Origin: an uncultured Candidatus Saccharibacteria bacterium
GTDB lineage: Bacteria; Patescibacteriota; Minisyncoccia; UBA6257; JAKLIH01
Direction of reading: 5' to 3'
Assembly: GCA_964618955.1 (NCBI GenBank)
Contig: CAZUBO010000002.1
Span: 1,582-65,581 of the forward strand
Length of the DNA: 64,000 nt
This document shows, in pieces, positions 22,260 through 59,889 of the stretch. The first letter of the stretch is position 1, and every line of letters begins with the position of its first letter. The notes beneath the pieces are model-generated. The model saw nothing but the letters and a program-made list of their open reading frames with translations. It was not told where the DNA came from and searched no databases. The translations under genes and the position numbers were made by a program.

Positions 22260-22262
22260 CCT

Positions 22263-25452: not shown

Positions 25453-26188
25453 TATATCTGAGAATAGTTATGGGCATAAAAAAAGATTAGATTTTATTAA
25501 GGAGCAGATTATAAAATACTGTTTAACAAATAGTTTGGATGCTTTTAATATTAGAATGTTAGATGTTGGGTGCGGTTCGGGAACTTTAGTAACTTTACCT
25601 TTAGGGGAAGAAGGATTCAATATCTTGGGAATTGATTTAGATCAAACTTCTATTGATTTTGCTAGAATACAGAATATCTTTAGAAATGTCAGTTTTGAGA
25701 AAAAGACAGTTGAGGAAGTTGAAGGGGAATATGATATAGTACTAGCTTGTGAGATACTAGAACATTTAGAAAGACCAGTTGAATTCTTAAAGACATTGAG
25801 TTCAAAATTAAAAACTAATGGTATTTTAATTCTAACGACTCCTAATGGATATGGGTGATCAGAGAAGGAAGGAGATTTGGTTAAGTGATTGGGTAAGAAT
25901 TTGTTAATTAGAAGAATAATTAATAAATTCAAAAAACATTCACAAGATATTACTTTAAATGAGTCAGATAAGCATTTACAGAAGTTCAGCTATGAATTAT
26001 TACTAAATATCTTTAATGATTCAGGATTGAAAGTTGTTGGTAGTAAGAATGGTCCGGTATTTGGTGGACCAATAATCGAAAGAACTTTTGCAAGATTACC
26101 GTTATTCAAGAAGACTTCTAATACATTAGGAGATATCTTGCCTTCAAAGATGGCTTTAGTATGATATTTTGTTTTAAAAAAATATTAA
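25439..26188 (+). CDS. Class I SAM-dependent methyltransferase
   Basis: LDVGCGSG motif I, acidic motif II (GIDLD), ACEILEH. Joined across TGAs at 25856, 25886 and 26162. Confidence 0.8.
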
Positions 26189-26196
26189 TTTTAAAT

Positions 26197-26970
26197 ATGG
26201 ATATTAAAAAAGACATACAAAAATTCTGAAATTCAAAACCTTGTGGGACTTTTGGGAATATACCAGAAGAAGCTAGTATTGAATACTTTAATAGAATCAA
26301 AGAACGCCGATATCGTTTGGAGCCTTTTATCTTAGATATTGCTAAGTTTAGTGAATATACTGACAAGAAGGTACTAGAGATTGGGTGTGGTATTGGTATG
26401 GATGGGATTGAATTTGCTAAGGCTAAAGCTGATTATACTGGAGTTGATCTATCGGACCAGTCTATTTCCTTATGTAAAAGGCATTTTGAGTTGTTTTCCC
26501 AAACTGGGAATATATTAAATATCGATGCTGAGAATTTGCCTTTTCCTGATAATACTTTTGATTTAGTATACTCCTGAGGAGTATTACATCATATACCAGA
26601 TATGCAAAAAAGTATTAATGAAGTTTATAGGGTATTAAAGCCAGGAGGGAAAATTGTTATTATGATATATAACAAATATTCGTTAGTTGGGTTGCAACTA
26701 TACTTGGTTTATGGATTATTGAAGTTTAAGTTTTTCAAGAAATTCAATGATTTGTATTACAATTGCCACGAGAGTGTGGGGACAAAGGCTTTTACTGATT
26801 TAGAGAGTAAAAAAATGTTTAATGCGTTTAATGATTTAAAAGTCTTTAATATTGTAACACCATATGATGTTAGAATTACTAGGAATAGATTCTTACCAAG
26901 AATATTTCAAAAGTTAGTTCCAAGTCGTTTTGGATTCTTTAAGATAATATTGGGGAATAAAAAAAAATAA
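26197..26970 (+). CDS. Class I SAM-dependent methyltransferase (second, type 11-like)
   Basis: F-W-NSKPCG N-terminal motif, LEIGCGIGMDG motif I, FDLVYS-W-GVLHH. Three track fragments are in one frame. Confidence 0.8.
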
Positions 26971-26971
26971 T

Positions 26972-28774
26972 ATGTTTGTAACAAAGACAAGAATTAAAAA
27001 ATTATTGAAAAATCCTTTAGGAGGATTAATGTTTTTAAATCAATTTTTTAAGTCTTTAAAATTAAAGAATTTGAAAATTAAGAATGTTAAATATATAGAA
27101 AGTGTTTGACATTCATTAATTAATAATTCGGAATTTTTTAATTTTGTTATTGACAATAGTAATCCTTTTGAAGGGAAGGTTAGAATTTTTGATAAGGAAG
27201 TTAGTATTGATGAGATTGATTGGAATCGAGACTATTTTAATAATTTTCCAATAAAGAGGGACTACTATTTTAATTTGAGAGAATGAATAATTAAGAATAG
27301 TTTTAAAGGTTTTGATATTAAGAATGTTTGGGAATTATCTCGAGGATATTTCTTAATTGATTTGGCTAGTTTATATTACAAGACTAAAGACGAAAAGTAT
27401 TTAGAAGAATACCAAAAGATAATACTAGAATGAATTAAACAAAATCCATATTTGTATTCTAGCAATTGAACTAATCCAATGGAAGTAAGTGTAAGAATAA
27501 TTAATTGAATTACTAGTTTTCAAATTATTAATAAGGATGGTGTTAAATTTAATGAAGAATTTTTAAATATTTTTTTCAATCATATGAATTTAAGTTTTAA
27601 TTATTTGATTAATAATATTGAAACTTATCCTTTCAAATCAAATCATTATATGATTGATAATTTAGGAATATTGGTTTTGAGTTTGTTTTTGAATTCGAAA
27701 GATAAATGAATTCAAAAAAGCTTTAATAACCTATTGAAGGCTGAGTTCTCGCAATTTGATAGTGATGGGGTTGATTTTGAGAATTCAAGCAATTACCAGG
27801 TTCTAAAAACAGAGGCTTTAATGATGGCGTTTTTGATGTATAAGCAGAATTTGAATAAGCTAGAGAATGTTATACAGCTTGAAGATAGATATCTAGAGCA
27901 ATTAAGTAAGATTTTTGAATTTTCAATTCATTTGTTTAAGAATGAAGGTACTTTTTTGGCTGGTGATAATGACGAAACTGAGGTTTTGAGATTGCCTTTA
28001 AAGGCTAAGTTAGAGAAACTGTATTTAATGATGTTTGGAGATAAGGTTGATTTAAATAATAGCAAGATATATTTTAAGAGTGGTTATGGATTCTTAAGAA
28101 ATTCAAAATTCAATATTTTACTCTTAAGAGCTAATAATATTAGGAGTAGTCACTTCCATAATGATTTATTGAGCTTTCAATTAGTATATGGGGGTAAAGA
28201 CTTTTTTATTGATAGTAATACTTTTAATTACAATACGGATAAAGAGAAGAGGGTATCATACTTAAGAACTCAGAGCCATAATACTTGCTTTGTGAATAAT
28301 ATTGAACAAAGTAGGATTGAAGCTAATGATGCATTCTTAAGGAATAAATCTGTAAGATCAATATGCAAGAAGTCTAACGTATCGAGTACTCGAGATGAGA
28401 TGACTTTAGAAACTAAATACAATAATTTTTCACATTTGAGATCTTTGATATTTAATAAAGAACAGAACAAATTAAGTATTTTTGATACTTTCAATGGGAA
28501 AGTAAAATCTATTGAATGAAATTTGTTTTGTCCTAAAGAAGTTAAGGTATACAATAATTTAACTTTGAAGAATGTTTTGATTTTAGAGAATGATGGCTTA
28601 AAATTAATTTTGGAATTACCAGAGACTTTGAGTTACACTTTGAATAATGCTTTTGTATCTCCGAGATACAATACTGAAGAGATTGGAACTAATATAAAAT
28701 TAAAATTTGAAAATAAAAATAATATATCAAACTTATCATTTCAAATTGTTATCAAAGAAAATTATTTAAATTAA
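26972..28774 (+). CDS. Heparinase II/III-like (alginate-lyase superfamily) protein
   Basis: 600 aa restored from ATG 26972 through many TGAs. VWELSRGYF and NW-TNPMEVSVRIINW motifs in the N-domain. HFHNDLLSF and H-rich C-domain. Confidence 0.75.
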
Positions 28775-28778
28775 ATGT

Positions 28779-29978
28779 ATGAAGATATTAATTTATAGTC
28801 AATACTTCTATCCAGAGACTAATGCTCCAGCTAATCGTTTAAACGATATGGCTAGGTATTTAGCTAAAGGGAACAAGGTTTCGATTTTGACTGGATTTCC
28901 GAATCATCCTTTAGGAAGAATGATTGGGGAATACAAAATGAAATGATTAATGAAGGATACGGTTGAAGACATGGATGTTTATAGAAGTTTTTTGATTATT
29001 CCGAGGAAGACAAATTCAAAAATATATAGATATCTAAATTACTTTAGTTTTGCTTTTTCAAGTTTTTTGAATTTGTTTAGAATTGAAAAGCCTGATTTAA
29101 TGATTGTAACTAGTCCACCAATAAGTGTTTTAATCTTAGGATATATTTATGCTAAGATAAGGCATATACCATTAGTTATTGACTTAAGAGATTTATGACC
29201 TGAAGCAGCTATAAGTCTAAAGGTAGTTAAGAAGGGATTCGTTATTAATTGCTTAGAAAAATTAGTTGCTAAAGCATATATGTATTCTAAAAATATAATT
29301 ATCAATACTGAAGCCTTTAGGGACGCTTTGGTTAGTAAGTACGAGATTATGAATTCTAAGATTACATACATTCCTAATGGATTTGATATTGAAGGGAATT
29401 TAGAATTCAAAAAAGAATTTGTTGATGAGGGGGAATTCAAAATCTTTTATTCGGGATTGTTTGGTTGAGCTCAGAATGTTGATTTGATTATTGAGACAGC
29501 TAAGATCTTTAAAGACAAAGGTTCTTTAGTTAAATTTGTTTTGATTGGTGATGGGCCTTTGAAGGAAGCTTTGAAAGACAAAGCTTTGAAGTATCATTTA
29601 AATAACTTAGAGATTCTTGATTATCAAAAGAAAGATAATTTGTTCAAGATAATCAGTGAATGTAACTTAGGATTAATAACTTATGAATTAAATGATACTT
29701 TTCGTAAGAATATTCCTTCAAAGATCTTTGACTATATGTTTTTAGAGAAGCCGGTAATAATAAACTTAGAGGGGGAAGCTTCAAGAATAATAGAAGATGG
29801 TAAGTTTGGATTCTGTTATGAAACTAATGATCCTGCTAAGTTATGTAATAGAATTGAAGAGATTCTAACCACTATGGATTTAAAGACTAGAGGTAATAAT
29901 GGCTTTGAATATTTGAAGGCCAATTTCGATAAGAAGGAATTACTTAAAAGATTAGATAAGATATTAGAAGTTGAATAA
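28779..29978 (+). CDS. GT4 glycosyltransferase, WbuB-like
   Basis: MKILIYSQYFYPETNAPANR N-terminus is typical of WbuB-type GT4. Four fragments are in one frame. C-terminal E-x7-E region. Confidence 0.8.
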
Positions 29979-30217: not shown

Positions 30218-31240
30218 ATGGATGTTTTGTATTATCTAAATGTATTTTGAAATAACAATATTGTTCAAGGTTTGATGGCAATCTTGGGAGCTATTGTTTT
30301 AGCTTTTGTAATTGATTATTTAATTTGATTCTATGTTAAGAAGTTTACAACTAGAACCCATACTCATATTGATGATTTCTTAGTGAATGTTTTAACAACA
30401 CCAATACATTGGATAATTATAATCTTAGGAGCCAAGAAAGCTTTTTTGAAGATCTTTAATATTGTATTAACAAAGAATGTTGACCTATACTATCGTATTG
30501 CGATTATAGTTTTAATAGCTTATGTGATATCTAGATTATTATCATTCTTTATTGGCCATTGATTAAAGGTTCAAAAGCAAACTAAAAAAATACCACAATA
30601 CATTAGTAATATAGTAGGAGTGGTTGTATTTTTAATTGCTTTGATGGTTGTAATGACAATGCTGAAGATATCTATAGCTCCATTACTAACCAGTTTTGGT
30701 ATTGCTGGAGTTTTGATTGGTTTATCATTACAAAATACCTTGGTGAATTTTATTGCTGGATTGAAGATAATATCAGAAGAGAAGATTAAAATTGGAGATT
30801 TTATTGATGATGGCGTTAGTATTAAAGGCGTAGTAGAAGATATGAGTTTGAATTCAACTAAAATAAGAAATTTGAATAATAATATCATTATTGTTCCTAA
30901 TTCAAAGATATCAGATAATCCAATAACTAATTATTCTAGGAATGATAGCAAGATTAGAGTAGTAGTTCCTATAACCTTGGTTATTGATAAGCCTTTAGTC
31001 GAGATGAAGAAGAAGTTAAATTCAATTGTTTTAGAAGTATTTGAAAGCATGGAAGGGATTGATAAGAAGCATGTTCCAGAAGTTTGAATAATCAATGCTG
31101 GACAAGCTAGTTCTATGACTCAGCCAACAGCTACTTTTAATGTCTTAATTACAGTAGTAAGTTACAAATATCAATTTGGAGTAGCTGATGCGATATTAGA
31201 GAAGGTTAGTAAAACATTTTGAAAGTATCAACATGAATAA
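30218..31240 (+). CDS. Small-conductance mechanosensitive channel (MscS family)
   Basis: N-terminal TM helices, pore helix LLTSFGIAGVLIGLSLQNTLVNFIAG, beta domain GDFI..G.V.D. Restored through TGAs from ATG 30218. Overlaps the next gene by 8 nt. Confidence 0.85.
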
Positions 31241-32474
31241 ATTCAAACAAAGTTTTACATTAGTAGAATTAATGATAGTAATAGCAATCTTAGCAATATT
31301 ATCTGCTATTGTAATTTTTGCATTAAACCCAGCCAGACTCTTTGATAACTTTAGAGATTCAAAAAGAGTAACTGATATATCTAGTATTAACAAAGCTATT
31401 GTATTCATGGAATCTTGAAATCAATCAGGTATTACCTATGGTACTACAACTAATGTATATATCTCTCTACCTGATTCAAGTTCTACTTGTAGCTCTTACA
31501 CACTTCCAACTCTTCCTACTGGATATACATATTACTGTTCTAATGCTACAAACTACAAGAATACTGATGGAACTGGTTGAATACCTATCAACTTTACAGT
31601 AGAAGGATCTAATAGATATCTATCAAGTCTACCAGTAGATCCAGTCAATAACAATTCTTTCTTCTATACCTACTATTCAGGAGGATCATATGAATTAACT
31701 GCAATACTAGCTAATCCCAATAAGAACTCTATTGATGACGAAGGAAGTCTTACATCAACCTTTGAGATTGGTAGTCCTAACCGAACATGGAATACACCGC
31801 TACAGAGGGATAAAGGATTGGTACTATACTACAATTTCAATGAAGCAAGTGGCAATGCGCAAGATATGTCGGGGAATGGATATACAGGAACTCTTAACGG
31901 GCCGGTCAGACAAACATTAGTTGGAACTGATCAATCGATGTATTACGATGCCAGTTCCTCAGATTATATCTCAACTCCTAGTTTTGCAATTCCTAATACG
32001 GGGATATTGACGATAGAGGCGTGGATGAAGAGTGTGGGTGCGGATAAGTATCAGTTTATATTAAGTGATGCATCTTATAATGAAATGTCTGGTTTTATAT
32101 ATATGGATAGACCAGTTAATACTAATAGTCTTTTGTATCTGTATGCCAACGGAACAGTATCGGCAGAGTCTTTGTTTACTAACTTCTTTCAAAGTTTAGA
32201 CAATCAATGACTCCATATAGTTATAGTTTGTGATTATACAAATAAAATAGGAAAAGCGTATAGAAATGGGGTTCAATTTGGAACTACTCAAAATCTTACT
32301 GGTGTGCCCGTATTTCCTTCGGTTGGTAGAGTTAAATATATTGGCGCATATAGTAGTGGCGCTTATAAAATCACCGATGGTTCTCTTGATGAAGTAAGAA
32401 TATATAATAGGGGATTGAGTGCGGAGGAGATATCAGCCCAGTATACCTCGACAAAAGGCCATTATGGCTACTAA
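31233..32474 (+). CDS. Type IV pilin-like protein fused to a LamG/concanavalin-A-type lectin domain, paralog 1 (413 aa)
   Basis: N-terminus KQS-FTLVELMIVIAILAILSAIV (prepilin-type methylation motif with E5). C-terminal LamG signature DGSLDEVRIYNRGLSAEEI. Three in-frame TGAs. I hand-translated it end to end. Confidence 0.85.
31247..32474 (+). repeat. Pilin-lectin repeat unit, copy 1 (most divergent)
   Basis: Aligns by eye, nucleotide for nucleotide, with 35779.. and 40777.. over the first 750 bp or so, and again over the last 100 bp or so. Confidence 0.85.
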
Positions 32475-32533
32475 ATAGGCCTTTTGAAGGCTAATTTAGC
32501 TAGTAAATACGTTGGTTTTTAAGGCTTAAATTG

Positions 32534-32570
32534 GAAATACCCTAGTAAATACTAGGGTATTTCAATTTTA
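32534..32570 (+). terminator. Strong terminator after pilin paralog 1
   Basis: 13-bp perfect stem gaaataccctagt / actagggtatttc with loop aaat, then aatttt. Confidence 0.75.
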
Positions 32571-32598
32571 GCCTGTTTTTAGTTATCCACAGACCCTA

Positions 32599-32627
32599 TT
32601 GACTCTGAAAAGGGGGTATGGTATAAT
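32599..32627 (+). promoter_or_regulatory. Near-consensus sigma70 promoter for the 3D-domain gene
   Basis: ttgact, 17 nt, tataat, with TGG upstream of the -10 (tatggtataat). A perfect DnaA-box-like ttatccaca lies at 32583..32591. Confidence 0.6.
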
Positions 32628-32644
32628 ATACCTATCTTTCAGCA

Positions 32645-33196
32645 ATGAAAGATTTTTTAACTATTATGGATACAGGCGGGGGTTCAAAAGCTAAATTGAA
32701 CCTTACATCCAGTAAAATCTGATCACTATTCATTAACAAGCGTAAAAGCTTATTAATGGTAGCGTGTATGGGTTTATTCTTAAACCTAGGTCAAGCTGGA
32801 TTTTTATCTCTTAACGAAGCGTCATCTGTAGTTGTTCCTTTCCAAAGCGGTTATTCCTACAATGCTTTATTCTTAAAGCCTGTTGGAACTCAACCCAAGA
32901 ATACCTCACCAGTTAAAATAAAAGTAACAATCACGGCCTATTCTTCTACAATTGAACAATGCGATAACGATCCTTTCGTTACTGCATCTGGTCATCCGGT
33001 TGAAGAGGGTATCATTGCTGCTAACTTCTTGCCTTTTGATACAAGAGTTAGAATCCCGGCAATCTACGGTGATAGAGTATTCGTTGTGAAGGACAGGATG
33101 AACCAAAAGTATAACAATAGAGTAGACGTTTGATTTGGTGATACAAAAGAAGCAATAGACTTTGGTGTCAAATCAACGTTTATCGAAATATTTTAA
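32645..33196 (+). CDS. 3D-domain (MltA/RlpA-like double-psi beta-barrel) cell-wall protein
   Basis: N-terminal hydrophobic anchor, then VTITAYSS..QCDNDPFVTASG..IAAN..RVRIP..VKDRMN, typical of 3D domains. Two in-frame TGAs. Confidence 0.75.
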
Positions 33197-33201
33197 AAAA
33201 G

Positions 33202-33232
33202 AAAGCCAACCTGAAAGGGTTGGTTTTTCTTT
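33202..33232 (+). terminator. Terminator after the 3D-domain gene
   Basis: ccaacc tgaaag ggttgg core with A/T extensions and a T-run. Confidence 0.55.
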
Positions 33233-33291
33233 TAAAAAATACTTTTAATTTTTTGTTTTTTGTGATATACTTTAGTAATAAACACATTATC

Positions 33292-33999
33292 ATGTTAACA
33301 ACTTTAGGAATTGTATTGAGTAAAAAAGATGTTGGAGAATACGATAGAGAGTATTGTTTTTTTACAAAGAATTATGGTAAAATAAAACTAATAGCAAAGT
33401 CGGTAAGAAAGCCATTATCGAAATTAAGCGGACAATTAGAACCACCGTCTTTGATTGAAGTTGTATTTGTACCGAACAATGATAAGGGATTGATTACTAC
33501 AGCATTAGTTAAAAAGAATTATTTAAAAGTTCGAAGAATACTAGAAAAACAAAAGACATACAATACTATAGTAAGAACTATTGAAGAATTAACTGAATAC
33601 AAACACAAGGATTTAATAATGTGAGGATTATTAAAAAATACAATTGATAATTTAAATAATTATGAATGGAAGTTAATTGAAATTGATTTTCTGGCAAAAT
33701 TCTTGAAAGTCTTAGGATTCTCACCGAATGTTGAACATTGTATTAAATGCCAAAGGAAAATTTTAAATGAAGTTAATATATATTTTGATAATGAACATTG
33801 GGGATTCTGTTGTGAGAAATGCAAAAATATTAAGAATGAAAAAGTAACATTACAAGTTTTTAAGATTCTATCAATTTTATTAACATTACCTTTAAAAGAG
33901 ATTTTGAATAGGGAATTGGATGAGCCAATATTAATTCAATACAAAAAAATACAGAGTTTGTTAAATAAGTATTTAAAACAAATAAAAAAATATTTTTAA
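33292..33999 (+). CDS. recO: DNA repair protein RecO
   Basis: OB-fold N-terminus (GIVLSKKDVGEYDREYCFFTKNYGKI), C-terminal zinc module CIKC..x..CEKC. One in-frame TGA at 33622. Confidence 0.8.
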
Positions 34000-34009
34000 A
34001 AAATACAAT

Positions 34010-35743
34010 ATGGGAATAAAAAATAGCCAAAACAAATTGTTTGCTTTAGGAATGATCACAACTATTATTCTAATAGTTGGAGGATATTTTGCTTGAAAAC
34101 TACTAACTCCTGGGAGTGTGAATTTTTCAATTGAAAGTCCTAAAGAGATTAAGTCAGGCGAGACACAAAAGATTAAATTCATTTGTGAGAATAATACCAG
34201 ACTAATTTTAGCTAATTCCCAAATTAAAATTAAATTACCAGACAATGCTTTTGATATTGATTACAGTCAAACTCCAACAATACTGTTAGGAGACGTAGCT
34301 CCAAAAGAAAAGATTGAAAAAGAAATTGAAGTAGTCTTCTATGGAGTTACGGGAGACAAGCCAAAGATTGAAGCTTCATTTGAATACAAGCCTCAAGGAT
34401 TCTCTTCAGTCTTTAAAAAAGACCAAGACTTTAGTATGTTGATTAATGGTTCAAGTATTAGTTTGAACATTACTAATCCAAACCAAGTTTTGCCAGAGAC
34501 TCCTTTTGATATGGGGATTGCTTGAACCAATCAAGCTAAAAAAGATTTTGAGAATTTGGTAGTAAAGATTAATTACCCAGCAGAATTTAATTTCAATTCA
34601 AGCGATCAAGAAGCTATAAGAACTGATAATACTTTTGATTTAGGTTTTGTTAGATCGTTTGAGCAGGGGAATATCAATCTTTCTGGATTCATGAATAGCC
34701 AAGGAGGAGAGAATAAGAAATTCGAAGTTTTGATAGGGATAGAATTAAAAGACATGAAGAAATTCTTTGTAATTAATAAATCGGAATCAGTAGTATCGTT
34801 AGTAAGTAATCCTTTGAGTTTAAACGTAAAGGTTAATGATGTAAGTACTTATTCAGCTAGTATTGGCGAGATGCTGCATGTAAGTTTGGATTACAAGAAT
34901 AACTATAATGTGCCTTTGAATAATATGGTATTAAAAGTTGTATTTGATGGTACATATTTTGATTACAAAAAGTTAATACCTAATAAAGGATATTTTACTT
35001 TTGGTAATAAAACTATTACTTGGAATGAAGTCCAAATACCAGAATTAGCAACACTAAATCCAGGAGAAGGGGGAAATATTGAATTCTCAATACCAGTAAC
35101 TGATAAATTCAATGTAAAGACATATGCTGATAAGAATTTGAAATTGAATATCAATGCTATAATAGAAAGCTTAACACCAGTTCAGGGATTGGATGTAAAT
35201 TCTAAAGTCAAAGCTAGTAGTAGCGCTATGGTGAAATTAAATGCCGATATGAATGTAGAAATTACTGGATTCTTTACTGACAACAAAACTACAATAAGCA
35301 ATTGTGGAAGCTTACCTTTAAAGGTTGGCCAGAAAACTTGTTATACCGTACATATGAAGATTAAGAATTATTTGAATGATGTAAATAATATATTGATTAC
35401 TACTGACTTACCTTACTATGCAAACTATACTAATAAATTCACAACAAGTTATAGCAATGCTGATTTTACTTTCGATACGTTTTCAAAGAAATTGATTTGG
35501 AAGCTAGATAGTTTACCAGCTAATTCCGGAGTAATTACAAAACCTTATGAATTAGTATTCCAAGTAGAAGTAGCTCCGACAACAAATGAAGCAAATTCAG
35601 CTATTCCGATTATAAATTCAACGAGTATGTCAGCTACTGATTCATTCACTCAGAATAAGATTAGTAAGACTTACAAAGAATTAATGTCAAATAATATCGG
35701 GGATGCATTAACTAATTCGGGATATGGCAGAGTAACTGAATAA
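34010..35743 (+). CDS. Hypothetical N-terminally anchored surface protein (577 aa), beta-rich
   Basis: ATG 34010 is in frame with ORFs 34118 and 34556, joined by TGAs. One N-terminal TM helix, then repetitive beta-strand-like sequence. No family recognised. Confidence 0.6.
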
Positions 35744-35770
35744 TATATATTAAAGATTAAAAAAAACAAT

Positions 35771-37009
35771 ATGCAAAAACAAAGTTTTACATTAGTAGAA
35801 TTAATGATAGTAATAGCAATCTTAGCAATATTATCAGCTATTGTAATTTTTGCATTAAACCCAGCCAGACTCTTTGATAACTTTAGAGATTCTAAGAGAG
35901 TAACTGATATATCTAGTATTAACAAAGCTATTGTATTCATGGAATCTTGAAATCAATCAGGTATTACTTATGGTACAACAACAAACGTATATATATCTCT
36001 TCCTGATTCAAGTTCTACTTGTAGTTCTTATTCATTACCAACTCTTCCTACTGGATACAATTATTACTGTAGTAATCCTACAACGTATAAGAATACTGAT
36101 GGTACTGGCTGAATACCTATCAACTTTACGGTTGAAGGATCCAATAGATATCTATCAAGTTTACCTATTGATCCAGTCAATAATTCTTCTTTTTTTTATA
36201 CCTACTATTCAGGAGGATCCTATGAATTAACTGCCATACTATCTAATCCCAATAAGAACTCCATTAATGATGAAGGAAGTCTTACATCAACCTTTGAGAT
36301 TGGTAGTCCTAATAGAACATTTAATACTCCACTACAAAGAGATAAAGGATTAGTATTATACTATGACTTCAACGAAGTATCTGGTAATGCCCAAGATCAT
36401 TCAGGGAATGGATATACAGGAACTCTTAATGGACCAGTTAGACAGACATTAGTTGGAACTGATCAAGCAATGTACTACGATGCCAGTTCCTCAGATTATA
36501 TTTCAACTCCTTCTTTTGCAATACCTGATACTGGAGTACTTACAATAGAAGTGTGAATGAAGAGCAAACTTGATACTACACATCATCAAACAATATTAGG
36601 CGATGCTAATCAAAACTCATCAATTAGTTATCTTTTTTTTATTAGATACGCGAATACAAATGTTTTATATTATGAATATGCTAATGGAACAGTTATAGGC
36701 ACTGTTAATTTTGCTAATTTTTTTCAAAACTTAGATGATCAATGAATCCATATAGTAGTAATTTGTGATTATTCAAATAAAACATTAAAAGCATATAGAA
36801 ATGGAATTCAGTTTGGAACTACACAAAATCTTTCGGGAACCCCACAATTTCCGTCAATTAACAGAGTAAAATATATTGGTACTTGATCGGGCTCTTCGCA
36901 TAAACTAACTGATGGCTCCCTTGACGAAGTAAGAATATATAATAGAGGGTTGAGTGCCGAAGAGATAGCGGCCCAGTATACAAATACAAAATCTCACTAT
37001 GGACAATAG
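35771..37009 (+). CDS. Type IV pilin-like / LamG lectin fusion protein, paralog 2 (412 aa)
   Basis: Same architecture as 31233. QKQS-FTLVELMIVIAILAILSAIV ... DGSLDEVRIYNRGLSAEEI. In-frame TGAs include the one in the WMKS motif. TAG stop at 37007. Confidence 0.85.
35779..37009 (+). repeat. Pilin-lectin repeat unit, copy 2
   Basis: Near-identical to copy 3 over about 750 bp, including a 233-bp block (36245..36477) that I found identical base for base to 41242..41474. Confidence 0.9.
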
Positions 37010-37056
37010 CATAAAAATGTTCTAGAATATTAATACATAATAAATAAAATACAAAT

Positions 37057-38385
37057 ATGAAAGCCAAGCAAAATCAAATGGAAAAATTAGTAGCCTTTTT
37101 AAAGGATAACGGATTTATCAATCTATCATCAGAACCTTATGGTGGGTTCTCAAGTTCGTATGATTACGGCCCTTATGGAGTTGAAGTAAAAAACAATTTG
37201 AAAAAGGCTTGATGAGATACTATGACAAAAGAATTTGATAATATTGTAGGGATTGATTCTTCAATATTAATGTCTCCTAAAGTATGAGAAGCTTCGGGAC
37301 ATTTAACTGCTGGCTTTGCTGATGAATTAGTTGAATGTAAAGAATGTCATAAGAGATTCAAGGCTGATGAATTAGAGAATGAAAAATGTCCAAGCTGTAA
37401 GGGGGAATTATCAGCTCCAAAGAAATTCAATGTAATGATGAAGACTTTTGTAGGACCAATCGAAGATAGTGCTAATATTGTATATTTGAGAGGAGAAGCT
37501 TGCCAGGGAATATATATGAATTTCTTATGAGCAAAGAATTCAGCTAGAATGAAAATACCTTTTGGTATTTGTCAGATTGGAAAAGCTTTTAGAAATGAAA
37601 TTACTCCTGGACCGTTTACTTTTAGAACCAGAGAATTCGAGCAAATGGATTTACAATTCTTTGTACATCCATTTGAAGCTGATAAATACTTTGAATTCTG
37701 AAAAGAGCAAAGAATGAATTACTACTTGAAGTTAGGAATTAGTAAAGGCCATTTGCGTTTTACAGATCATCCTGAAAACAAGTTAGCTCATTATGCTAAG
37801 AAGGCTTGTGATATTGAATATTTGTTTCCTTTTGGATGAAGCGAGATAGAGGGAATACATAATAGAACTGATTGAGATTTAGGGAATCATTCTAAGGCTA
37901 GCGGAACAGACTTATCATACTTTGATCAAGAGACAAAGGAGAAGTATATGCCATACATTATCGAAACTTCTGCTGGATGTGATAGAACTTTGTTAGCATT
38001 CTTATCAGAAGCCTTTGTTGAATTCGAAAAAGGTAGAAATGAAGATTCCGAAAGTACTGAATACTTGATGAATTTGAATAAGAAATTAGCTCCAGTTAAG
38101 GTAGCTATAATGCCTTTGATGAAGAACAAAGAAGAATTGCAAAAGAAGGCTAGAGAGATATATGATAATTTAAAGTTTGAATTCAATACTAAGTTTGACG
38201 ATAGTGGATCTATTGGAAAACGCTATCGTAGAATGGATGAGTTAGGAACTCCTTATTGTATTACAATTGATTTTGATACTTTGACTGATGATTGCGTTAC
38301 CGTTAGAGATAGAGATACAATGAAGCAAGAAAGAATTGAAATCAAAGAATTAAAAAATTTCTTAAGAGAAAAATATGCTTACTAA
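37057..38385 (+). CDS. glyQS: Glycine--tRNA ligase (alpha2 / GlyQS type)
   Basis: [26 protein letters not shown] (TGA TGA at 37210..37215), [42 protein letters not shown]-terminal anticodon-binding domain in ORF 37948..38385. Confidence 0.93.
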
Positions 38386-39682
38386 ACATTTAAGTAAAAT
38401 ACCTGATAAATGTGAGTTTGAAAAATATGTTTTAAAAAATGGATTGGAAGTTGTTTTAATTCCGATTAAGAATGTGTTTTCAGTTGATGCAAAGTTGACA
38501 GTTCGAGTTGGGTCACAATACGAAACTAAAGAATTGAGTGGAATATCTCATTTCTTAGAGCATATGAATTTCAAGGGAACTAAAAACAAACCTAATCATG
38601 CTTTGCTAACTAAAAGCATTGATGAGAATGGTGGATTACAAAATGCTTCTACTGGGTATGATTTTACTTCGTACTACGCACATATTGGTTTTGAATACTT
38701 AGAATGTATATTAGACTTCTTATCAGATATATTTGTAAATTCAATATTTCCAGAAGAAGAATTTCAAAAAGAAAAAGGAGTAGTTATTGAAGAGATTAGA
38801 ATGTATGAAGATCTTCCTAGAGTTAAAGCCGAAGAATTAATGTTAGAAGCTCTATACGGCGATCAACCTGCCGGAAGGAATATCGCTGGAACCGAAAAGA
38901 ATATTTTAAATATGAATCGATCGCAGATGGTTGCTTTTTATAAAAAATATTACCATCCGAAGAATGCTACTTTGTTTGTAATGGGTAATTTTGATAATGC
39001 TCAAACTAAAAAATTAATTAAAAAATATTTTGAATTTGAAGTTAAGACAAAAGAAATTAAATATCCTAAAGCCAAATTATTGATTGATGGACCTAAAGTT
39101 AATTCTGGAGCCAAAGACTTAAAAGAAACTCACTTTGTCTTAGGATTTAATGCTTTTAAGCCAGGGGATAAGAGAAATGCAATATTATCAGTAATTAATG
39201 GTATTTTGTCTGATGGTTTTAATAGCAGACTCTATCTAAATGTCCGAGAGAAGCTAGGTGGAGCTTACTATATCACTAGCGGGGTAGACAAGATATTTGA
39301 TAGAGGAGTTTTCTCGGTATTAGCTGGAGTAAATACAGCTAAAACAAAATTAATCTTAAGTGAAATTATTAAAGAATTAAGGATTTTGAAAAACGAATTG
39401 GTTAAGAAGGAAGAATTAGAGAAGACAAAGAATCGTATTGTAGGATCAATTCTAATGTCATTAGACGATCCTTATACTATTGCGGAACCAGCTTACGAAG
39501 CTATAACTTTTATGACTAAAGTAGAGACTTTCAAACAATACATTGATGCTATTATGAAGGTTACTGATAAAGATATCATGAAGATTAGTAAAGAATTGTT
39601 TAATGTGGAAAATATTAAGATGGGAGTAGTATCGAAAAAACAGGATGCTAAAGAGTTGAAGGATATAATCAAAACAATTTAA
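38375..39682 (+). CDS. M16-family (insulinase/pitrilysin-like) zinc peptidase
   Basis: HFLEHMNFKGT inverted zincin motif (HxxEH) and a downstream EE region. Uninterrupted 435-aa ORF overlapping the glyQS end by 11 nt. Confidence 0.88.
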   Translation: MLTKHLSKIPDKCEFEKYVLKNGLEVVLIPIKNVFSVDAKLTVRVGSQYETKELSGISHFLEHMNFKGTKNKPNHALLTKSIDENGGLQNASTGYDFTSYYAHIGFEYLECILDFLSDIFVNSIFPEEEFQKEKGVVIEEIRMYEDLPRVKAEELMLEALYGDQPAGRNIAGTEKNILNMNRSQMVAFYKKYYHPKNATLFVMGNFDNAQTKKLIKKYFEFEVKTKEIKYPKAKLLIDGPKVNSGAKDLKETHFVLGFNAFKPGDKRNAILSVINGILSDGFNSRLYLNVREKLGGAYYITSGVDKIFDRGVFSVLAGVNTAKTKLILSEIIKELRILKNELVKKEELEKTKNRIVGSILMSLDDPYTIAEPAYEAITFMTKVETFKQYIDAIMKVTDKDIMKISKELFNVENIKMGVVSKKQDAKELKDIIKTI

Positions 39683-39704
39683 TAATTCTTTTAAATTAAA
39701 AACT

Positions 39705-40733
39705 ATGGAAAGAGAAATACATATTTCTTTTAAAAGCTTATGAAGAATCTGCTTTGTCGGATTGATGGTTTTTGGATTAATATATTTTAGACAAATTCTA
39801 TTGATGTTCATGGCGTCTTTAATTCTATCAGCTTCAATGGAGAATATTATTAATTGGTTTGAATCTAAAAAAATCCCCAGAATATTTTCAGCTATTTCAG
39901 TATATATTTTATTAATTTTTATAATTGTTGGTTTGGTATATATTATCTTTCCACCTTTGTTTCAAAACATATTAAGCTTGACTGGAGAATTGCCAACAAT
40001 GCTAAAATCTAGTACCACTTCAAGATTTTTTAAGAATTATTTACCGTTTATTAATAACAAGAGTTTATTGACTAATGCTTTTACGACTGATAATACTTTT
40101 AGTTACGTCGGGAATTTAGTTAAGAATTTATCAAGAATTGTTTTAGGATTATCTAATTTCTTCTTAATCATCTTAGTAGCTTTTTATTTGTCTTTGGAGA
40201 GAAGATGATTTAAGAATATGCTAGAGATGTTCTTGCCTCAGACTTACAAAAAGTATTTTATTAGATTATGGGAGAAGGCAGAAAACAAGATGGTATTCTG
40301 ACTATATAGCCAGATTGCTTTGAGCATGTTTCTAACTAGTATGGCTATAATTATCTTCTATATCATGGATATCCCATATCCATTATTATCAGCTATTATC
40401 TTAGGGTTATTTGATTTTGTACCTTTTATTGGACCAATAATTGCTACAGTTGTTATTGTATTTATTAATATGGATGGGGTTACTAAGTCAGGGATACTAT
40501 TAGCAGTATGTTTAGGATTACAATATATCCAAAATATTTTTGGACCATATATTAGAAGCAAATTCTTGAAAGTTGATCCAATAGTTACTTTATTTTTTAT
40601 TGCTATCTTTGGAAAGTTTGGTGGGGCTTTAGGGGTATTTGTCGCTATTCCGTTATCAACAACTATTGTTGAATTTTTGAAGGATTTAACTAATGAAAAG
40701 ATTTGCGATGAGAGATTTAAAAAATTAATATAA
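39705..40733 (+). CDS. AI-2E family transporter (PerM/YhhT-like permease)
   Basis: About 8 TM helices. GLFDFVPFIGPIIA signature. Fragments 39762 and 40320 are in frame with ATG 39705 through TGAs. Confidence 0.8.
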
Positions 40734-40767
40734 TATGCTAGAATATATTAAAATTAAGAATTAAATA

Positions 40768-42006
40768 ATGCAAAAGAAAAGTTTCACATTAGTAGAATTA
40801 ATGATAGTAATAGCAATCTTAGCAATATTATCAGCTATTGTAATTTTTGCATTAAACCCAGCCAGACTCTTTGATAACTTTAGAGATAGTAGAAGAGTAA
40901 CTGATATATCTAGTATTAACAAAGCTATTGTCTTCATGGAATCTTGAAATCAATCAGGTATTACTTATGGTACATCAACAAACGTGTATATCTCTCTTCC
41001 TGATTCAAGTTCAACTTGTTCAACATATTCATTACCAACTCTTCCTACTGGATACAATTATTACTGTAGTAGTCCTACAACATATAAGAATACTGACGGT
41101 ACTGGCTGAATACCTATCAACTTTACAGTTGTTGGATCCAATAGATATCTATCAAGTCTTCCTATTGATCCAGTCAATAACAATTCTTTCTTCTATACCT
41201 ACTATTCAGGAGGATCCTATGAATTAACTGCCATCCTTTCAAATCCCAATAAGAACTCCATTAATGATGAAGGAAGTCTTACATCAACCTTTGAGATTGG
41301 TAGTCCTAATAGAACATTTAATACTCCACTACAAAGAGATAAAGGATTAGTATTATACTATGACTTCAACGAAGTATCTGGTAATGCCCAAGATCATTCA
41401 GGGAATGGATATACAGGAACTCTTAATGGACCAGTTAGACAGACATTAGTTGGAACTGATCAAGCAATGTACTATGATGCTTCTGCCAGCGACTATATCT
41501 CAACTCCTTCTTTTGCAATACCTGATACAGGAATACTGACGGTAGAGGCGTGGATGAAGAGTAAAATACAAGCTTCCATTTATCAATCAATAATAAGTGA
41601 TTATAATGAAAATCCTACAATAGGTTTTTTATGAATATTTAGAGCTATAAATTCAGATAACATTGTTATAGAATATTCCAATGGTACTATAAGCACTTCT
41701 ACGGGTTATTCCAATTTTTTTCAAAATCTTGATAACCAATGGATCCATATAGTAATAGTTTCTGATTATACCACTAAAACAATGAAAGCATATAGAAATG
41801 GAGTTCAATTTGGGAATACTATAAGTCTTACGGGTATTCCACAATTTCCCTCAACCAACAAGGCAAAATTTATGGGATCTTATGATCTTACAAGACACAA
41901 ACTCACCGACGGTTCCCTTGATGAAGTAAGAATATATAATAGAGGGTTGAGTGCGGAGGAGATAAGTGCTCAATATACAAATACAAAGTCTCGCTACGGA
42001 CAATAA
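40768..42006 (+). CDS. Type IV pilin-like / LamG lectin fusion protein, paralog 3 (412 aa)
   Basis: QKKS-FTLVELMIVIAILAILSAIV ... DGSLDEVRIYNRGLSAEEI. ORF 41782..42006 is its C-terminus. TAA stop. Confidence 0.85.
40777..42006 (+). repeat. Pilin-lectin repeat unit, copy 3
   Basis: See copy 2. Diverges from copy 2 mainly between about 41555 and 41735. Confidence 0.9.
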
Positions 42007-42030: not shown

Positions 42031-43530
42031 ATGAATAAGAAACTATTTGTAACATGTGCGTTACCATACATCAATGCTGAACCTCATTTAGGTCATGTGT
42101 TTGAATTTATTCAAGCTGATTGTTTTGTAAGATTCCATAAGATAATAGTGGATGAGGTATATTTTACAGCTGGGACGGATGAAAACAGCTTGAAGAATAT
42201 CATTGCTAGCAAAGAAAATGGGGTTAGTATTAAAGACTGATTAGATCAGAAGTCAAATTCATTTTTGAAGTTGAAAGATGATTTTAAAATATCTTTTGAT
42301 GATTTCATTCGAACTTCAGAAGAGAGACATCACTTAGGAGCTCAGAAGCTCTGAAGCGCTATGGACAAGAATGATATTATCAAGAAGAATTATGAAGGGC
42401 TATATTGTGTTGGATGCGAAACATTCTATACGGAAGACGAATTAGTTGATGGCTTATGCCCAGAGCATAAGAAAGCACCAGAAAAGATTACGGAAGAGAA
42501 TTACTTTTTTGTATTGAAGAATTACCAAAAGTTTTTAATTGATAAGATTGAGAAGAATGAATGAAAGATTATGCCAGAAAGTCGTAAGAATGAAATGCTA
42601 AGTTTTATTAAAGGAGATCTATTTGATGTGAGTGTCACTAGAAGTAAAAAGAGAAGTGAAGGATTGGGAATTGAAATACCAGAAGATAAAGACCAAGTAT
42701 TATGAGTTTGAATCGATGCATTATCAAACTACATTAATGTTTTGAATTATGGATTAGAAGATACTTCTTTATTTGAAGAATGATGAAATAAGAGTGACGA
42801 GATATGGCATTTCTTAGGTAAGGGAATTTTAAGATTCCATGCAGCTTTTTGACCAGCATTCCTAGAATCAGCTCAGGTTAGAATCCCAACTCATTTATTC
42901 TGTCATGGATATATTACTTTGAATAATGAGAAGATGTCTAAGTCTTTAGGGAATAGTTTAAATCCAAGAGATTTATTAGTTAAATATCCGGTGGATTCAA
43001 TACGATATTATTTAATGAAGGATATTCCTTCAGGAGATGATGGAGATTTTAATGAAGTTAATTTGACTAATAGACATAACAATGAATTATGTGCTTCTTG
43101 AGGGAATTTGGTTTCTAGAGTATTAGCTTTAGGAGAACAATACCAAAAGCCAATAAAGTTGAATTCTAATGAATTGAAATCTGAAATTGAAGTTGCAATT
43201 AAGAATTATACTGAATGTTTTTCGAATGTAAAGATTAATGACGTTGTGAGTGTTTGTTTTGATTTGATTGCCAAAATCAATAAATACATTAGTGAACAAA
43301 AGCCTTGATCATTGATAACTAGTTCTGAATCTGACTTTGAAAGAATAATTTCAAGTTCTTTATATGGCGTTATATATGCTAATATGCTATTATCAGCCAT
43401 AATGCCAGATAGTAGTTCAAAGATATTTGATACTCTAGGAATAGAAGCTAAGAATTTGAAAGACTTAGAATCAATTAATGGTAGAGAATTCAATCTTAAA
43501 AAACCAGAGAATTTATTTAATAGAATTTAA
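42031..43530 (+). CDS. metG: Methionine--tRNA ligase (short form, 499 aa)
   Basis: PYINAEPHLGH (HIGH), zinc knuckle CVGCETF..CPEH, VL-W-V-W-IDALSNY, FHAAF-W-PAFL (TGA 42850), KMSKSLGN. Five track fragments are in one frame. Confidence 0.93.
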
Positions 43531-50086: not shown

Positions 50087-50098
50087 TAAAAATTTACT

Positions 50099-52378: not shown

Positions 52379-52387
52379 AATAACTAT

Positions 52388-53383: not shown

Positions 53384-53447
53384 ATCAATTTTTATTGATA
53401 ATTTTTTGGTTTTATGTTACATTATATCTAATAACTAATTTAATATT

Positions 53448-53855
53448 ATGGATGATTATCAAGTACCACAATTCATTGAAGACGAAGCTAGATTAGTAGG
53501 ACCATTCTCCTTTGTCCAGATTTTTATATTAGTTGGTGGTTGTGGTTCAGCCTTGATAGTTTACAAATTATTAAAAGGCTTTTTGGGAATACCAATTGCA
53601 GTAGTATTATTATTCTTAACAGCAATGTTGACTTTTACAAAGTTCAACGATATGCCATTATACAAAATGGTAATTCCAATGATAAAGCATTTTGTATTAC
53701 CAAAATCATACCAATGATCTCAACCTAAAGGGGTAGTTACTAAAAATGAGAATATTAAAACTAAGACTGATTTTGATTTTAAGAATGTTGAGAGCAAGAC
53801 AGATATGAATGCAGTTGATGAATTAACTAAAATATTAGACAAAGGCAATGAATAA
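53448..53855 (+). CDS. PrgI-family / VirB3-like small membrane protein
   Basis: YQVPQFIEDEARLVGPFSFVQ N-terminal motif followed by two TM helices. One TGA. Overlaps the next gene by 8 nt. Confidence 0.65.
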
Positions 53856-54528: not shown

Positions 54529-54538
54529 AAAAACAAAT

Positions 54539-56323: not shown

Positions 56324-56333
56324 GAATTAAATT

Positions 56334-57137: not shown

Positions 57138-57141
57138 ATAT

Positions 57142-58224: not shown

Positions 58225-58255
58225 AAAAACCTCCGAAGTAATTCGGAGGTTTTTT
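58225..58255. terminator. Strong bidirectional terminator closing the T4SS-like operon (overlaps the jag stop)
   Basis: aaaaacctccgaa gtaa ttcggaggttttt. Confidence 0.8.
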
Positions 58256-58724: not shown

Positions 58725-58725
58725 A

Positions 58726-59406: not shown

Positions 59407-59411
59407 ATAGT

Positions 59412-59744: not shown

Positions 59745-59748
59745 AGTG

Positions 59749-59889
59749 TTAAGCGCTTAATTTGACTCTACCTTTCATGCGACGGCCTTTAACGACTTTT
59801 TTCCCAGCACAGGTTGATTGTCTAGCTAAAAAACCAAACTTTCTTGCTCTTTTAACCTTACTTGGTTGATAAGTTCTTTTTGTTGCCAT
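59749..59889 (-). CDS. rpmH: 50S ribosomal protein L34
   Basis: [46 protein letters not shown]. Confidence 0.95.

Follow-up and report, generated by a model that had tools for sequence, protein, structure and literature searches.

Three genes for modular type IV pilins, P1, P2, and P3, lie as direct repeats 4.5 to 5.0 kb apart in the 64-kb stretch of DNA analyzed here (the window) (Table 1). Their products are 80 to 83% identical to each other. The start of P1 overlaps the 3′ end of an mscS-like gene by 8 nt, P2 lies 27 nt downstream of the gene at 34010-35743, and P3 lies 34 nt downstream of a perM-like gene. The original prediction had placed P2 and P3 24 to 47 nt upstream of aminoacyl-tRNA synthetase genes, and the gaps are indeed 47 nt (P2 to a glyQS-type GlyRS gene) and 24 nt (P3 to a MetRS gene). 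For the neighboring gene that had been called “3D,” Pfam gave no match at an E-value of ≤0.1.

With the bacterial code (table 11), P1, P2, and P3 appear only as fragments. Straight translation yields 3 to 5 in-frame stops per copy, every one of them TGA; read in code 4, the three genes of about 412 codons have exactly the coordinates predicted for them, starting at 31233, 35771, and 40768. TGA positions of one copy align with TGG in the sister copies and also with the invariant or near-invariant residues W114, W262, and W325 of 73 homologues. Across all genes of the window (18,962 codons), TGA occurs in frame 156 times and TGG 32 times, the genes end with TAA (45) or TAG (3), and TGA aligns with conserved tryptophans of solved MetRS structures. 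These patterns indicate that the bacterium, a tiny-genome member of the Patescibacteria from a Minisyncoccia-like class, reads UGA as tryptophan (genetic code 4).

Table 1. Coordinates of the pilin genes and of their modules, variable blocks, and shared tract (a slash in the leaders precedes Phe+1)
Feature	Coordinates	Strand	Description and basis
P1	31233-32474	+	Modular type IV pilin, 413 aa (code 4); leader MNKFKQS/FTLVE; N_methyl 31.1 bits, Laminin_G_3 75 bits
P1 carrier module	31233-~31808	+	Equivalent of P2 stretch
P1 jelly-roll module	~31818-32471	+	Equivalent of P2 stretch
P1 hypervariable block	32031-32189	+	Residues 267-319, inside LamG β-sandwich
P2	35771-37009	+	Modular type IV pilin, 412 aa (code 4); leader MQKQS/FTLVE; Pfam domains
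P2 pilin “carrier” module	35771-36340	+	Residues 1-~190; homologue conservation, AlphaFold model
P2 233-nt tract	36245-36477	+	Identical to P3 41242-41474
P2 jelly-roll module	36350-37006	+	LamG/ConA-like, residues ~194-412; Pfam, PDB profile, AlphaFold, Foldseek
P2 hypervariable block	36563-36724	+	Residues 265-318
P3	40768-42006	+	Modular type IV pilin, 412 aa (code 4); leader MQKKS/FTLVE; Pfam domains; structure modeled on this copy
P3 carrier module	40768-~41337	+	Equivalent of P2 stretch
P3 233-nt tract	41242-41474	+	Partner of P2 36245-36477
P3 jelly-roll module	~41347-42003	+	Equivalent of P2 stretch
P3 hypervariable block	41560-41721	+	Residues 265-318

Structure of the proteins

Each copy begins with a class III signal peptide, with a short basic leader, serine at position −1, Phe+1, and Glu+5; the leaders are followed by the hydrophobic stretch FTLVELMIVIAILAILSAIVIF. 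Pfam N_methyl matches residues 3 to 27 of all three proteins with 29.1 to 31.1 bits (threshold, 21.2 bits), and the NCBIfam prepilin domain TIGR02532 reaches 20.4 bits (cutoff, 16.3). In a PDB profile search the N terminus (positions 2 to 90) matches geopilin, PilA, and GspG, and the NCBIfam models of the T2SS pseudopilins GspG and GspH match weakly. Phe+1 and Glu+5 matter for pilin processing and methylation and for filament assembly. The predicted Glu+5 is invariant among the 73 homologues, as are the other residues of a set comprising F6, T7, L8, E10, C84, C100, and W114. The canonical residue at −1 of type IV pilins is glycine; in this family the residue is always small and mostly noncanonical (serine in 60, glycine in 7, and alanine in 6 of the 73 sequences).

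The AlphaFold model of P3 (pLDDT, 87.6; pTM, 0.79) has a helix at residues 8 to 60 and a β-sheet at 72 to 178 (pLDDT there mostly 75 to 93), a low-confidence linker around 160 to 195, and an all-β sandwich at 194 to 390 (pLDDT, 89 to 98), that is, a pilin “lollipop” followed by a flexible linker and a β-sandwich of ∼215 residues. The segment originally described as a Cys-containing, Thr/Ser/Tyr-rich stalk is modeled instead as the globular head of the pilin, a β-sheet domain with the invariant Cys84/Cys100 pair. By their N-terminal motif, their leader, +1, and +5 pattern, and their predicted lollipop fold, P1 to P3 are type IV pilins.

Pfam Laminin_G_3 (PF13385) matches residues 240 to 401 of all three proteins with 72 to 75 bits (threshold, 27.6 bits) and covers 149 of the 151 model positions; a separate estimate places the limits of the whole jelly-roll module at 195 to 410, and its closing helix contains LDEVRIYNRGLSAEEI. 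Foldseek aligns 220 to 250 columns of the P3 model with domains of the clostridial neurotoxin Hc and of the arabinanase AbnA (E-values of 1e−11 to 1e−9; probability, 1.00). The PDB profile search returned 4qvs (2e−22), 5hon (an arabinanase accessory domain; 5e−16), the N-domain of the clostridial neurotoxin Hc (TeNT Hc), a sialidase CBM40, and pentraxins. Both domains of the pilin-LamG fusion that had been predicted thus lie above the Pfam thresholds in P1, P2, and P3, the motifs quoted for it are present in the three proteins, and the AlphaFold model, Foldseek, and PDB profiles agree that the C-terminal region is a LamG/ConA-type jelly-roll. “Lectin” is nevertheless a fold assignment, with a putative carbohydrate-binding activity, because the closest structural relatives include domains that to our knowledge have no proven sugar binding, namely, the Hc N-domain and the arabinanase accessory domain.

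Variation among the copies

The three proteins are 90 to 100% identical in residues 1 to 260 but only 33 to 45% identical in the hypervariable block, where sequence entropy across the entire family is at its highest. The dS value rises from 0.09 to 0.13 in the α1 region to 0.85 to 1.9 in the 3′ half. A tract of 233 nt is identical between P2 and P3, whereas the flanking DNA of the two copies is 88 to 95% identical. We interpret this tract as the trace left by recent gene conversion between P2 and P3, and the 5′ halves of the copies are homogenized. The dN/dS ratio is 0.1 to 0.5 in every segment, and all three copies are under purifying selection. The hypervariable block covers core β-strands as well as loops, its dN/dS is 0.34 to 0.5, and its dS is saturated; therefore, positive selection in the block is not demonstrated.

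Neisseria pilE/pilS also comprise several pilin copies with a conserved 5′ part and a variable 3′ part and with gene conversion between copies, and the pilS copies lack promoters, are truncated at the 5′ end, and stay silent. P1 to P3 resemble this system in their conserved 5′ and variable 3′ parts and in their gene conversion. However, they differ from pilS in being complete, with start codon and leader, and under purifying selection, and the conversion detected homogenizes the conserved part without shuffling the variable block. Antigenic variation of the pilE/pilS type was rejected, given the full length of all copies, their dN/dS values, and the lack of truncated pilin copies in the 64-kb window.

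Genomic location and pilus machinery

As predicted, the window contains no PilB, PilC, PilD, or PilM-Q; neither Pfam scans of the remaining open reading frames of at least ∼60 aa nor tblastn (code 4) with the pilus proteins of a relative revealed any of them. On metagenome contig L085, a family member with 71% identity is followed by PilM, PilO, PilB (a T2SSE match of 441 bits), PilT, PilC, a 154-aa pilin (N_methyl plus T2SSG) encoded directly 3′ of pilC, and PilD. The adjacency of this family member to the pil genes may be fortuitous, because a ComFC-like gene on the opposite strand separates it from pilM. The contig suggests that the lineage possesses the pilus machinery; it is placed as a close relative only by the shared sample, a matching GC content of 0.30, in-frame TGA, and the pilin identity, and it shares no housekeeping gene with the window.

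Family members occur on ten contigs of one metagenome and are multicopy in the lineage (3 in 11 kb here and 2 per contig in L081/L087 and L096). In the window and in the relatives L081, L082, and L084 they lie outside pilus operons. Contig L090, which comes from the same sample as L085 and has flanking genes 83 to 94% identical to those of the window, carries the positional counterpart of P1, and L084 carries that of P3. The flanking genes of these two counterparts are 72 to 94% identical to the window, whereas their pilins (62 to 72% identity) show no greater similarity to the copy at the matching site than to the remaining ones; the module has diverged fast relative to its flanks. At the P3-equivalent site of L084, the downstream open reading frames have no match to the window MetRS, and the adjacency of pilin and aminoacyl-tRNA synthetase genes is not conserved. 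We attribute it, and the location of the copies among housekeeping genes, to tight gene packing, with most genes on one strand; no functional link to the synthetases is indicated.

Full-length homologues are named [quoted passage not shown] or [quoted passage not shown] In relatives, the same carrier module (57 to 71% identical) occurs with different domains at the C terminus, which match FGE-sulfatase, Fib_succ_major, and, weakly, CBM_4_9.

Discussion

According to their Pfam domains and the AlphaFold model, P1 to P3 fall under the definition of modular pilins by Raynaud et al. (2021, PNAS; PMC8179133). They are a well-characterized example of the commonest known modular pilin: the architecture IPR012902-PF13385, with 229 proteins, is the most frequent of the 264 listed there (Dataset S1) and is identical to theirs, with a class III signal peptide, a pilin module, and one PF13385. 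Hence, the novelty that the original prediction implied for a pilin-lectin fusion does not hold. Of the architecture representatives in the legend of Fig. 8 of that paper, at least five belong to CPR phyla (Magasanikbacteria, Falkowbacteria, Wolfebacteria, Gracilibacteria, and Saccharibacteria). The catalogue is a domain census that addresses neither the function nor the evolution of this subfamily; P1 to P3 differ from it in their UGA=Trp lineage and in their three dispersed copies with a homogenized carrier and a hypervariable block. The PilY1/PilC tip adhesins of diderm type IVa pili follow the same logic, in which a carrier shows exchangeable effector modules at the tip, and PilY1 proteins share modules with modular pilins, including one PF13385-containing architecture (PMC8179133). 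However, PilY1, which has no class III signal peptide, is not a pilin, and a β-propeller, absent from P1 to P3, docks it to a minor-pilin complex.

The best functional analogue is PilC of Streptococcus sanguinis, which combines a pilin moiety carrying Glu5 with a concanavalin A-like β-sandwich lectin module, binds sialyl glycans, and is modeled in a complex with PilA and PilB at the pilus tip (Shahin et al. 2023; PMC9934059). It has no detectable sequence relation to P1 to P3 and is absent among the 60 listed of 83 PDB matches (E-value of ≤1). Its pilin moiety is very short, it has an additional Ig-like module, its lectin module resembles galectins, and in this monoderm pathogen its gene forms part of the pil locus, whereas P1 to P3 have a full-sized pilin module, a Laminin_G_3-type sandwich, and dispersed genes. 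Closer in phylogeny, a bioRxiv preprint (2024; PMC11623550) describes lectin-like minor pilins, PilX1 and PilX2, in Nanosynbacter lyticus TM7x (Saccharibacteria), whose pili and lectin-like pilins, by that account, contribute to host binding, which free sugars inhibit. As described, these are likewise large Patescibacteria pilins with C-terminal lectin-like domains, with PilX1 resembling L-type lectins. TM7x belongs to a different class with the standard genetic code, its PilX genes lie within type IV pilus loci, and the parts of the preprint drawn on here report no multicopy, hypervariable organization.

We consider it likely that P1 to P3 are functional paralogues of a bimodular type IV pilin and act as pilus-displayed adhesins with differing ligand specificity. 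The prepilin peptidase PilD would cut before Phe+1, and the α1 helix would let the subunit dock into a type IV pilus, which the PilM/N/O-PilB-PilC machine would assemble and PilT retract. The bulk subunit would be a small pilin of ∼150 aa, and the LamG pilin, because of its bulk, would sit at the tip or be incorporated sparsely. The jelly-roll would then be presented as an adhesin to a surface ligand of the host or partner cell of the presumed episymbiont; this ligand would most likely be a glycan. The three copies keep a near-identical carrier, homogenized by gene conversion; they differ strongly in a LamG block of ∼55 residues and hence probably represent three ligand specificities or antigenic forms.

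Are the LamG pilins perhaps the major subunits along the whole filament, forming a thick, lectin-coated pilus with three alternative major pilins? The abundance and copy number of the family, a pilin module complete with full α1 helix and head domain, and a low-confidence linker that is perhaps flexible enough for the filament body are in line with this, and Raynaud et al. (PMC8179133) leave incorporation into the filament body possible. However, we find it quite unlikely, as the usual place of a major pilin, directly after pilC, is taken in L085 by a classical 154-aa pilin, lectin-module pilins are minor pilins in both experimentally studied systems (PMC9934059 and PMC11623550), and a 24-kDa extra domain on each subunit would be sterically demanding. 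The signal peptide could also be a mere membrane anchor or secretion signal of surface receptors or glycan binders that form no long retractable filaments; surface display or pseudopilus-like stubs would come under this heading. Genes outside pilus operons here and in three relatives, serine rather than glycine at −1, the weak similarity to GspG and GspH, and the glycoside hydrolase accessory domain among the PDB matches speak for such a role, which nonetheless seems unlikely to us in view of Phe+1 and Glu+5 in 73 of 73 homologues and of the retraction ATPase PilT in the cluster of the lineage. Moreover, it is normal for pilin genes to lie away from the machinery loci; in TM7x there are four loci, according to the preprint (PMC11623550).

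The least probable explanation, to which we give only a slight chance, is a pilus for DNA uptake (competence) in which the LamG pilin serves as a structural or priming minor pilin without an adhesin role. CPR bacteria lack nucleotide synthesis, and pili plus ComEC have been proposed to take up DNA in them; this proposal and the ComFC-like gene that separates the family member from pilM in L085 agree with competence. On the other hand, the modules borne by the one carrier (LamG, FGE-sulfatase-like, Fib_succ_major, and CBM-like) resemble ligand-binding effectors rather than priming subunits, and a module that diverges faster than its flanks fits surface recognition. DNA uptake and attachment are not mutually exclusive.

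Beyond the proposed role of P1 to P3 as pilus-displayed adhesins, a broader reading is conceivable, if doubtful: the family may form a lineage-wide, recombination-driven adhesin repertoire in which gene conversion keeps the carrier uniform while the effector is diversified. It is similarly speculative that diversification would proceed both in the hypervariable LamG block and by wholesale swaps at the “EIGSPNR” junction, and that the modules swapped in would be the FGE-sulfatase-like, Fib_succ_major, and CBM-like domains of the relatives. If this is true, the host range of a UGA=Trp Minisyncoccia episymbiont would be determined, and quickly altered, by the adhesin repertoire. Such a repertoire would be an analogue, in host recognition, of phage tail-fiber cassettes or of Neisseria pilin variation, with all copies expressed.

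Results

Translated with genetic code 4, in which UGA is read as tryptophan, the three paralogous pilin genes P1, P2, and P3 are intact on the + strand, and the start positions and the length of about 412 residues given in the original prediction are confirmed. Under the standard bacterial code (table 11) the genes yield only fragments of at most ~130 aa, and this reading was discarded; the straight translations contain 3 to 5 in-frame stops each, every one of them TGA. The whole window uses code 4. Its genes contain 156 in-frame TGA versus 32 TGG in 18,962 codons, which combine to a Trp content of about 1%, a normal value, and they end in TAA (45 genes) or TAG (3 genes), with no other stop codon. 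Within the alignment of P1 to P3 the TGA of one copy stands opposite the TGG of another, TGA also matches W114, W262, and W325, which are invariant or nearly so in 73 homologues, and TGA codons of the MetRS gene fall on Trp positions conserved in solved MetRS structures (VW-DA, FWPAF, and PW-L motifs). Codon usage and the occurrence of TGA at conserved Trp positions therefore identify the code as table 4 and rule out code 25 (UGA as Gly): Trp would then come from TGG alone and amount to only 0.17%, and TGA faces conserved Trp, never Gly. The window's 8 tRNAs include no tRNA-Trp(UCA).

Features of the window (nucleotide positions) and of the AlphaFold2 model of P3 (residues)
Feature	Position	Strand	Remarks
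Surface-polysaccharide-type cluster	20148-29978
P1	31233-32474	+	413 aa, code 4
Gene following P1	32645-33196
Surface-type protein gene	34010-35743		577 aa
P2	35771-37009	+	412 aa, code 4
Tract in P2 identical to P3	36245-36477		233 nt
P3	40768-42006	+	412 aa, code 4
Tract in P3 identical to P2	41242-41474		233 nt
MetRS gene	42031-43530		10 in-frame TGA
Type IV secretion/conjugation-like cluster	48878-58212
Replication-origin-type gene set	58254-63942
dnaA	61086-62558
dnaN	62827-63942
P3 model, α1 helix	residues 8-60		53 residues
P3 model, β-sheet head	residues 72-178
P3 model, linker	residues ~160-195		low confidence
P3 model, β-sandwich	residues 194-390		pLDDT 89-98
P3 model, closing helix	residues 396-410

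All three proteins match the Pfam models N_methyl at residues 3 to 27 (29 to 31 bits; threshold, 21.2) and Laminin_G_3 at residues 240 to 401 (72 to 75 bits; threshold, 27.6), and they also exceed the threshold of the NCBIfam prepilin domain model. In 73 aligned full-length homologues F+1, T, L, E+5, the Cys84/Cys100 pair, and W114 are invariant, and the −1 residue is always small (Ser in 60, Gly in 7, and Ala in 6). These homologues served as the input alignment for an AlphaFold2 model of P3 (pLDDT 87.6, pTM 0.79), whose β-sandwich resembled the lectin-like N-domain of clostridial neurotoxin Hc and the accessory domain of the arabinanase AbnA in a Foldseek search of the PDB (E values of 1e-11 to 1e-9). 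A PDB-sequence profile search matched positions ~200 to 410 to the LamG domain of an S-layer protein (4qvs, 2e-22), 5hon (5e-16), TeNT Hc, sialidase CBM40, and pentraxins, and the N-terminus to geopilin, PilA, and GspG. Hence, Pfam, AlphaFold2/Foldseek, and the PDB profile all agree on the proposed C-terminal LamG/ConA-type jelly-roll. The three-part description of the proteins stands for the prepilin N-terminus and the LamG C-terminus but not for the middle part, described as a stalk; because the model has a β-sheet head here, this part is the head domain of the pilin.

The same carrier, that is, the pilin module at the N-terminus (residues 1 to ~190), is joined in relatives (57 to 71% identical) to C-terminal modules other than LamG, and the module switches at a conserved EIGSPNR junction, at about residues 185 to 195 of P1 to P3. 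In place of LamG, the carrier bears a module that is FGE-sulfatase-like (30 bits), Fib_succ_major (76 bits), or weakly CBM_4_9-like; among the examples (database homologues P0048, P0055, and P0062), P0048 shares its NCBI contig with two LamG-type copies, P0007 and P0016. Counting pilin fusions with the full-length profile proved unworkable, as the LamG superfamily swamped the 550,181 matches at an E value of ≤0.001 among representative proteins. The top matches were giant multi-LamG proteins of 1,300 to 7,700 aa from public metagenomes (P0243-P0392), with up to 38 matched stretches, in which the recurring part is the LamG module (profile positions ~195 to 410).

The P1 to P3 proteins are 80 to 83% identical overall, with 90 to 100% identity over residues 1 to 260 and 33 to 45% over residues ~265 to 319, a block that is also the most variable stretch of the whole family. 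The dN/dS ratio is 0.1 to 0.5 in every segment (0.34 to 0.5 in the hypervariable block, examined for positive selection, where dS is saturated), and thus all three copies are kept by selection. dS climbs from 0.09 to 0.13 in the α1 region to 0.85 to 1.9 in the 3' half, and a tract of P2 is identical to P3 within DNA that is 88 to 95% identical; the gradient and the tract are signs of gene conversion on the carrier. Relatives' copies at syntenic sites resemble their positional counterpart no more than they resemble the other copies (62 to 72% identity over the C-terminal 238 aa), and the flanking genes are 72 to 94% identical (83 to 94% at the P1 site), a pattern that fits concerted evolution plus rapid divergence of the LamG module. 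With all copies intact, P1 to P3 differ from a pilE/pilS-type system, and a silent-cassette (pilS-like) model is rejected.

The gene order at the copies is MscS-like, P1, a gene without Pfam match, RecO, the surface-type protein, P2, GlyRS, M16 peptidase, PerM, P3, and MetRS. Upstream are genes for FtsH, RluD, L19, UvrC, and iPGM, a surface-polysaccharide cluster, and SmpB-type housekeeping genes; downstream are those for PNPase, KsgA, a LysM-M23 peptidase, a PrgI/VirB4-like cluster, YidC/Jag, DnaA, and DnaN. A Pfam scan of every other ORF of about 60 aa or more detected no pilus assembly gene in the window, and tblastn (code 4) with PilM/O/B/T/C/D of a relative matched only the three pilin N-termini, in line with what had been predicted. 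By motif scan, the window has no pilin gene beyond these three. The gaps to the synthetase genes had been given correctly (47 nt for P2 and 24 nt for P3). We rejected a functional tie to aminoacyl-tRNA synthetases: the ORFs downstream of the P3-equivalent site in the related metagenome locus L084 bear no match to the MetRS of the window. Other homologues adjoin unrelated genes, so dispersal is the rule and the synthetase adjacency is not conserved. A promoter/terminator scan was uninformative in this AT-rich DNA (65 sites found versus 75 expected) and found no terminators on the + strand.

The gene following P1 had been labeled 3D, a label that Pfam does not bear out, with no match at an E value of ≤0.1. 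The 577-aa surface-type protein has sub-threshold similarity to Chlam_OMP6/DUF11-like repeats. Both genes are conserved beside a family member in the related locus L090 (94% and 87% identical, respectively). The stretch resembling a surface-polysaccharide biosynthesis cluster encodes a dehydrogenase/oxidoreductase fusion, an AsnB-like amidotransferase, a Polysacc_synt flippase, two methyltransferases, a heparinase II/III-like protein, and a GT4 glycosyltransferase. Besides the LysM-M23 peptidase, the stretch resembling a type IV secretion/conjugation-like cluster encodes a polytopic membrane protein of 759 aa that has no Pfam match, a PrgI-family protein, a P-loop ATPase of the VirB4/TraG type (594 aa), and two more unassigned membrane or secreted proteins. 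The replication-origin-type set includes jag and yidC on the − strand and an NYN-domain gene; GC skew is positive throughout the window and keeps its sign near dnaA.

A database search returned 632 homologues of the pilin family, and full-length N_methyl plus Laminin_G_3 proteins of ~400 to 420 aa are common in Patescibacteria. A metagenome scan provided 18 related loci, which were compared with the window after code 4 translation. L084 has the M16-PerM-pilin order of the P3 site, L090 has the order of the P1 site (pilin, counterpart of the gene following P1, RecO, surface protein), and two paralogues each are present on L081/L087 and L096. A single sample supplies ten contigs, and 14 of the 18, among L085, L087-L095, and L097-L101, start inside a pilin gene, mostly at residue ~140 to 175; in one sample many contigs break at residue ~145 to 175. 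Such breaks would be expected if assemblers collapse the multi-copy conserved 5' half, and they suggest that assemblies end there and that the number of paralogues per genome is under-counted.

L085 (Ga0172379_10009622, 1-11163), likely from a close relative of the window organism, opens with a family member that is 71% identical. It continues with a ComFC-like gene on the opposite strand, PilM (130 bits), a PilN-sized ORF, PilO, a 102-aa ORF, PilB (T2SSE, 441 bits), PilT, PilC (T2SSF, 183 bits), a 154-aa pilin (N_methyl plus T2SSG, Ala at −1), two ORFs without assignment, and PilD (A24_N_bact, 113 bits). Hence, the lineage probably possesses a full type IV pilus system capable of retraction; its machinery is encoded beside a family member in this relative but not within the 64-kb window.

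PNPase homologues with names (~52% identity) belong to Minisyncoccia, Parcubacteria, or Paceibacterota and, by sequence similarity, put the organism in Patescibacteria, class Minisyncoccia/Parcubacteria; the nearest PNPase relatives (76 to 93% identity) are on metagenome contigs. A scan of genome contigs with the family alignment gave no close relative among the matches listed, which were mostly distant and N-terminus-only, from Planctomycetota, Lentisphaerota, and similar groups. The earliest report of UGA-to-Trp recoding in Patescibacteriota is a preprint from May 2026 (gTranslate; 10.64898/2026.05.24.727570) that describes two Minisyncoccia lineages, a description that the window fits.

Discussion

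The locus does not represent a new kind of system. Raynaud et al. 2021 (PMC8179133) catalogued >1,200 modular pilins with 264 architectures, the commonest being IPR012902-PF13385 (229 proteins), and the legend to Fig. 8 of that paper includes at least five architecture representatives from CPR phyla. P1 to P3 share every testable feature of these modular pilins, and the novelty had thus been judged too high. Three points are mildly new: a Minisyncoccia lineage with UGA=Trp as the setting, the concerted-evolution pattern, and the exchange of modules on a single carrier.

Most Patescibacteria have not been cultured, and those in culture are attached to other microbes; type IV pili are leading candidates for host recognition. 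Our analysis supports the interpretation of P1 to P3 as lectin-fold pilins of a putative attachment device, and we infer that they are pilus-displayed putative adhesins. PilD would cleave before Phe+1, and the α1 helix would place the subunit in a pilus whose main component is a small pilin. The 154-aa protein of L085 is a candidate for this small major pilin; that the LamG pilin is itself a decorated major pilin appears improbable. Equally, we consider it unlikely, if slightly less so, that a protein with this class III signal peptide is a surface anchor outside any filament, and a role of the LamG pilin in a competence pilus is more doubtful still.

As part of a displayed adhesin, the bulky LamG module would be exposed, most likely at the tip, and would bind a surface ligand of a partner cell, probably a glycan. 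PilT-driven retraction would then pull the cells together, and the three copies would give different specificities. The proposal draws on two experimental precedents. PilC of Streptococcus sanguinis has a ConA-like lectin module that binds sialyl glycans and was modelled in a tip complex (PMC9934059), and in the saccharibacterium TM7x, minor pilins resembling lectins take part in binding to the host (PMC11623550). P1 to P3 show no sequence relationship to S. sanguinis PilC, which is absent among the 60 of 83 PDB profile matches (E value of ≤1) listed.

Because the standard code splits P1 to P3 into fragments, annotation pipelines blind to UGA=Trp recoding in this Minisyncoccia lineage will miss these pilin genes. 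The defined module junction could guide the expression of LamG modules for glycan- or host-binding screens. The locus is a clean, well-modelled case of the commonest modular pilin and comes with an internal comparison, one carrier that presents three LamG surfaces.
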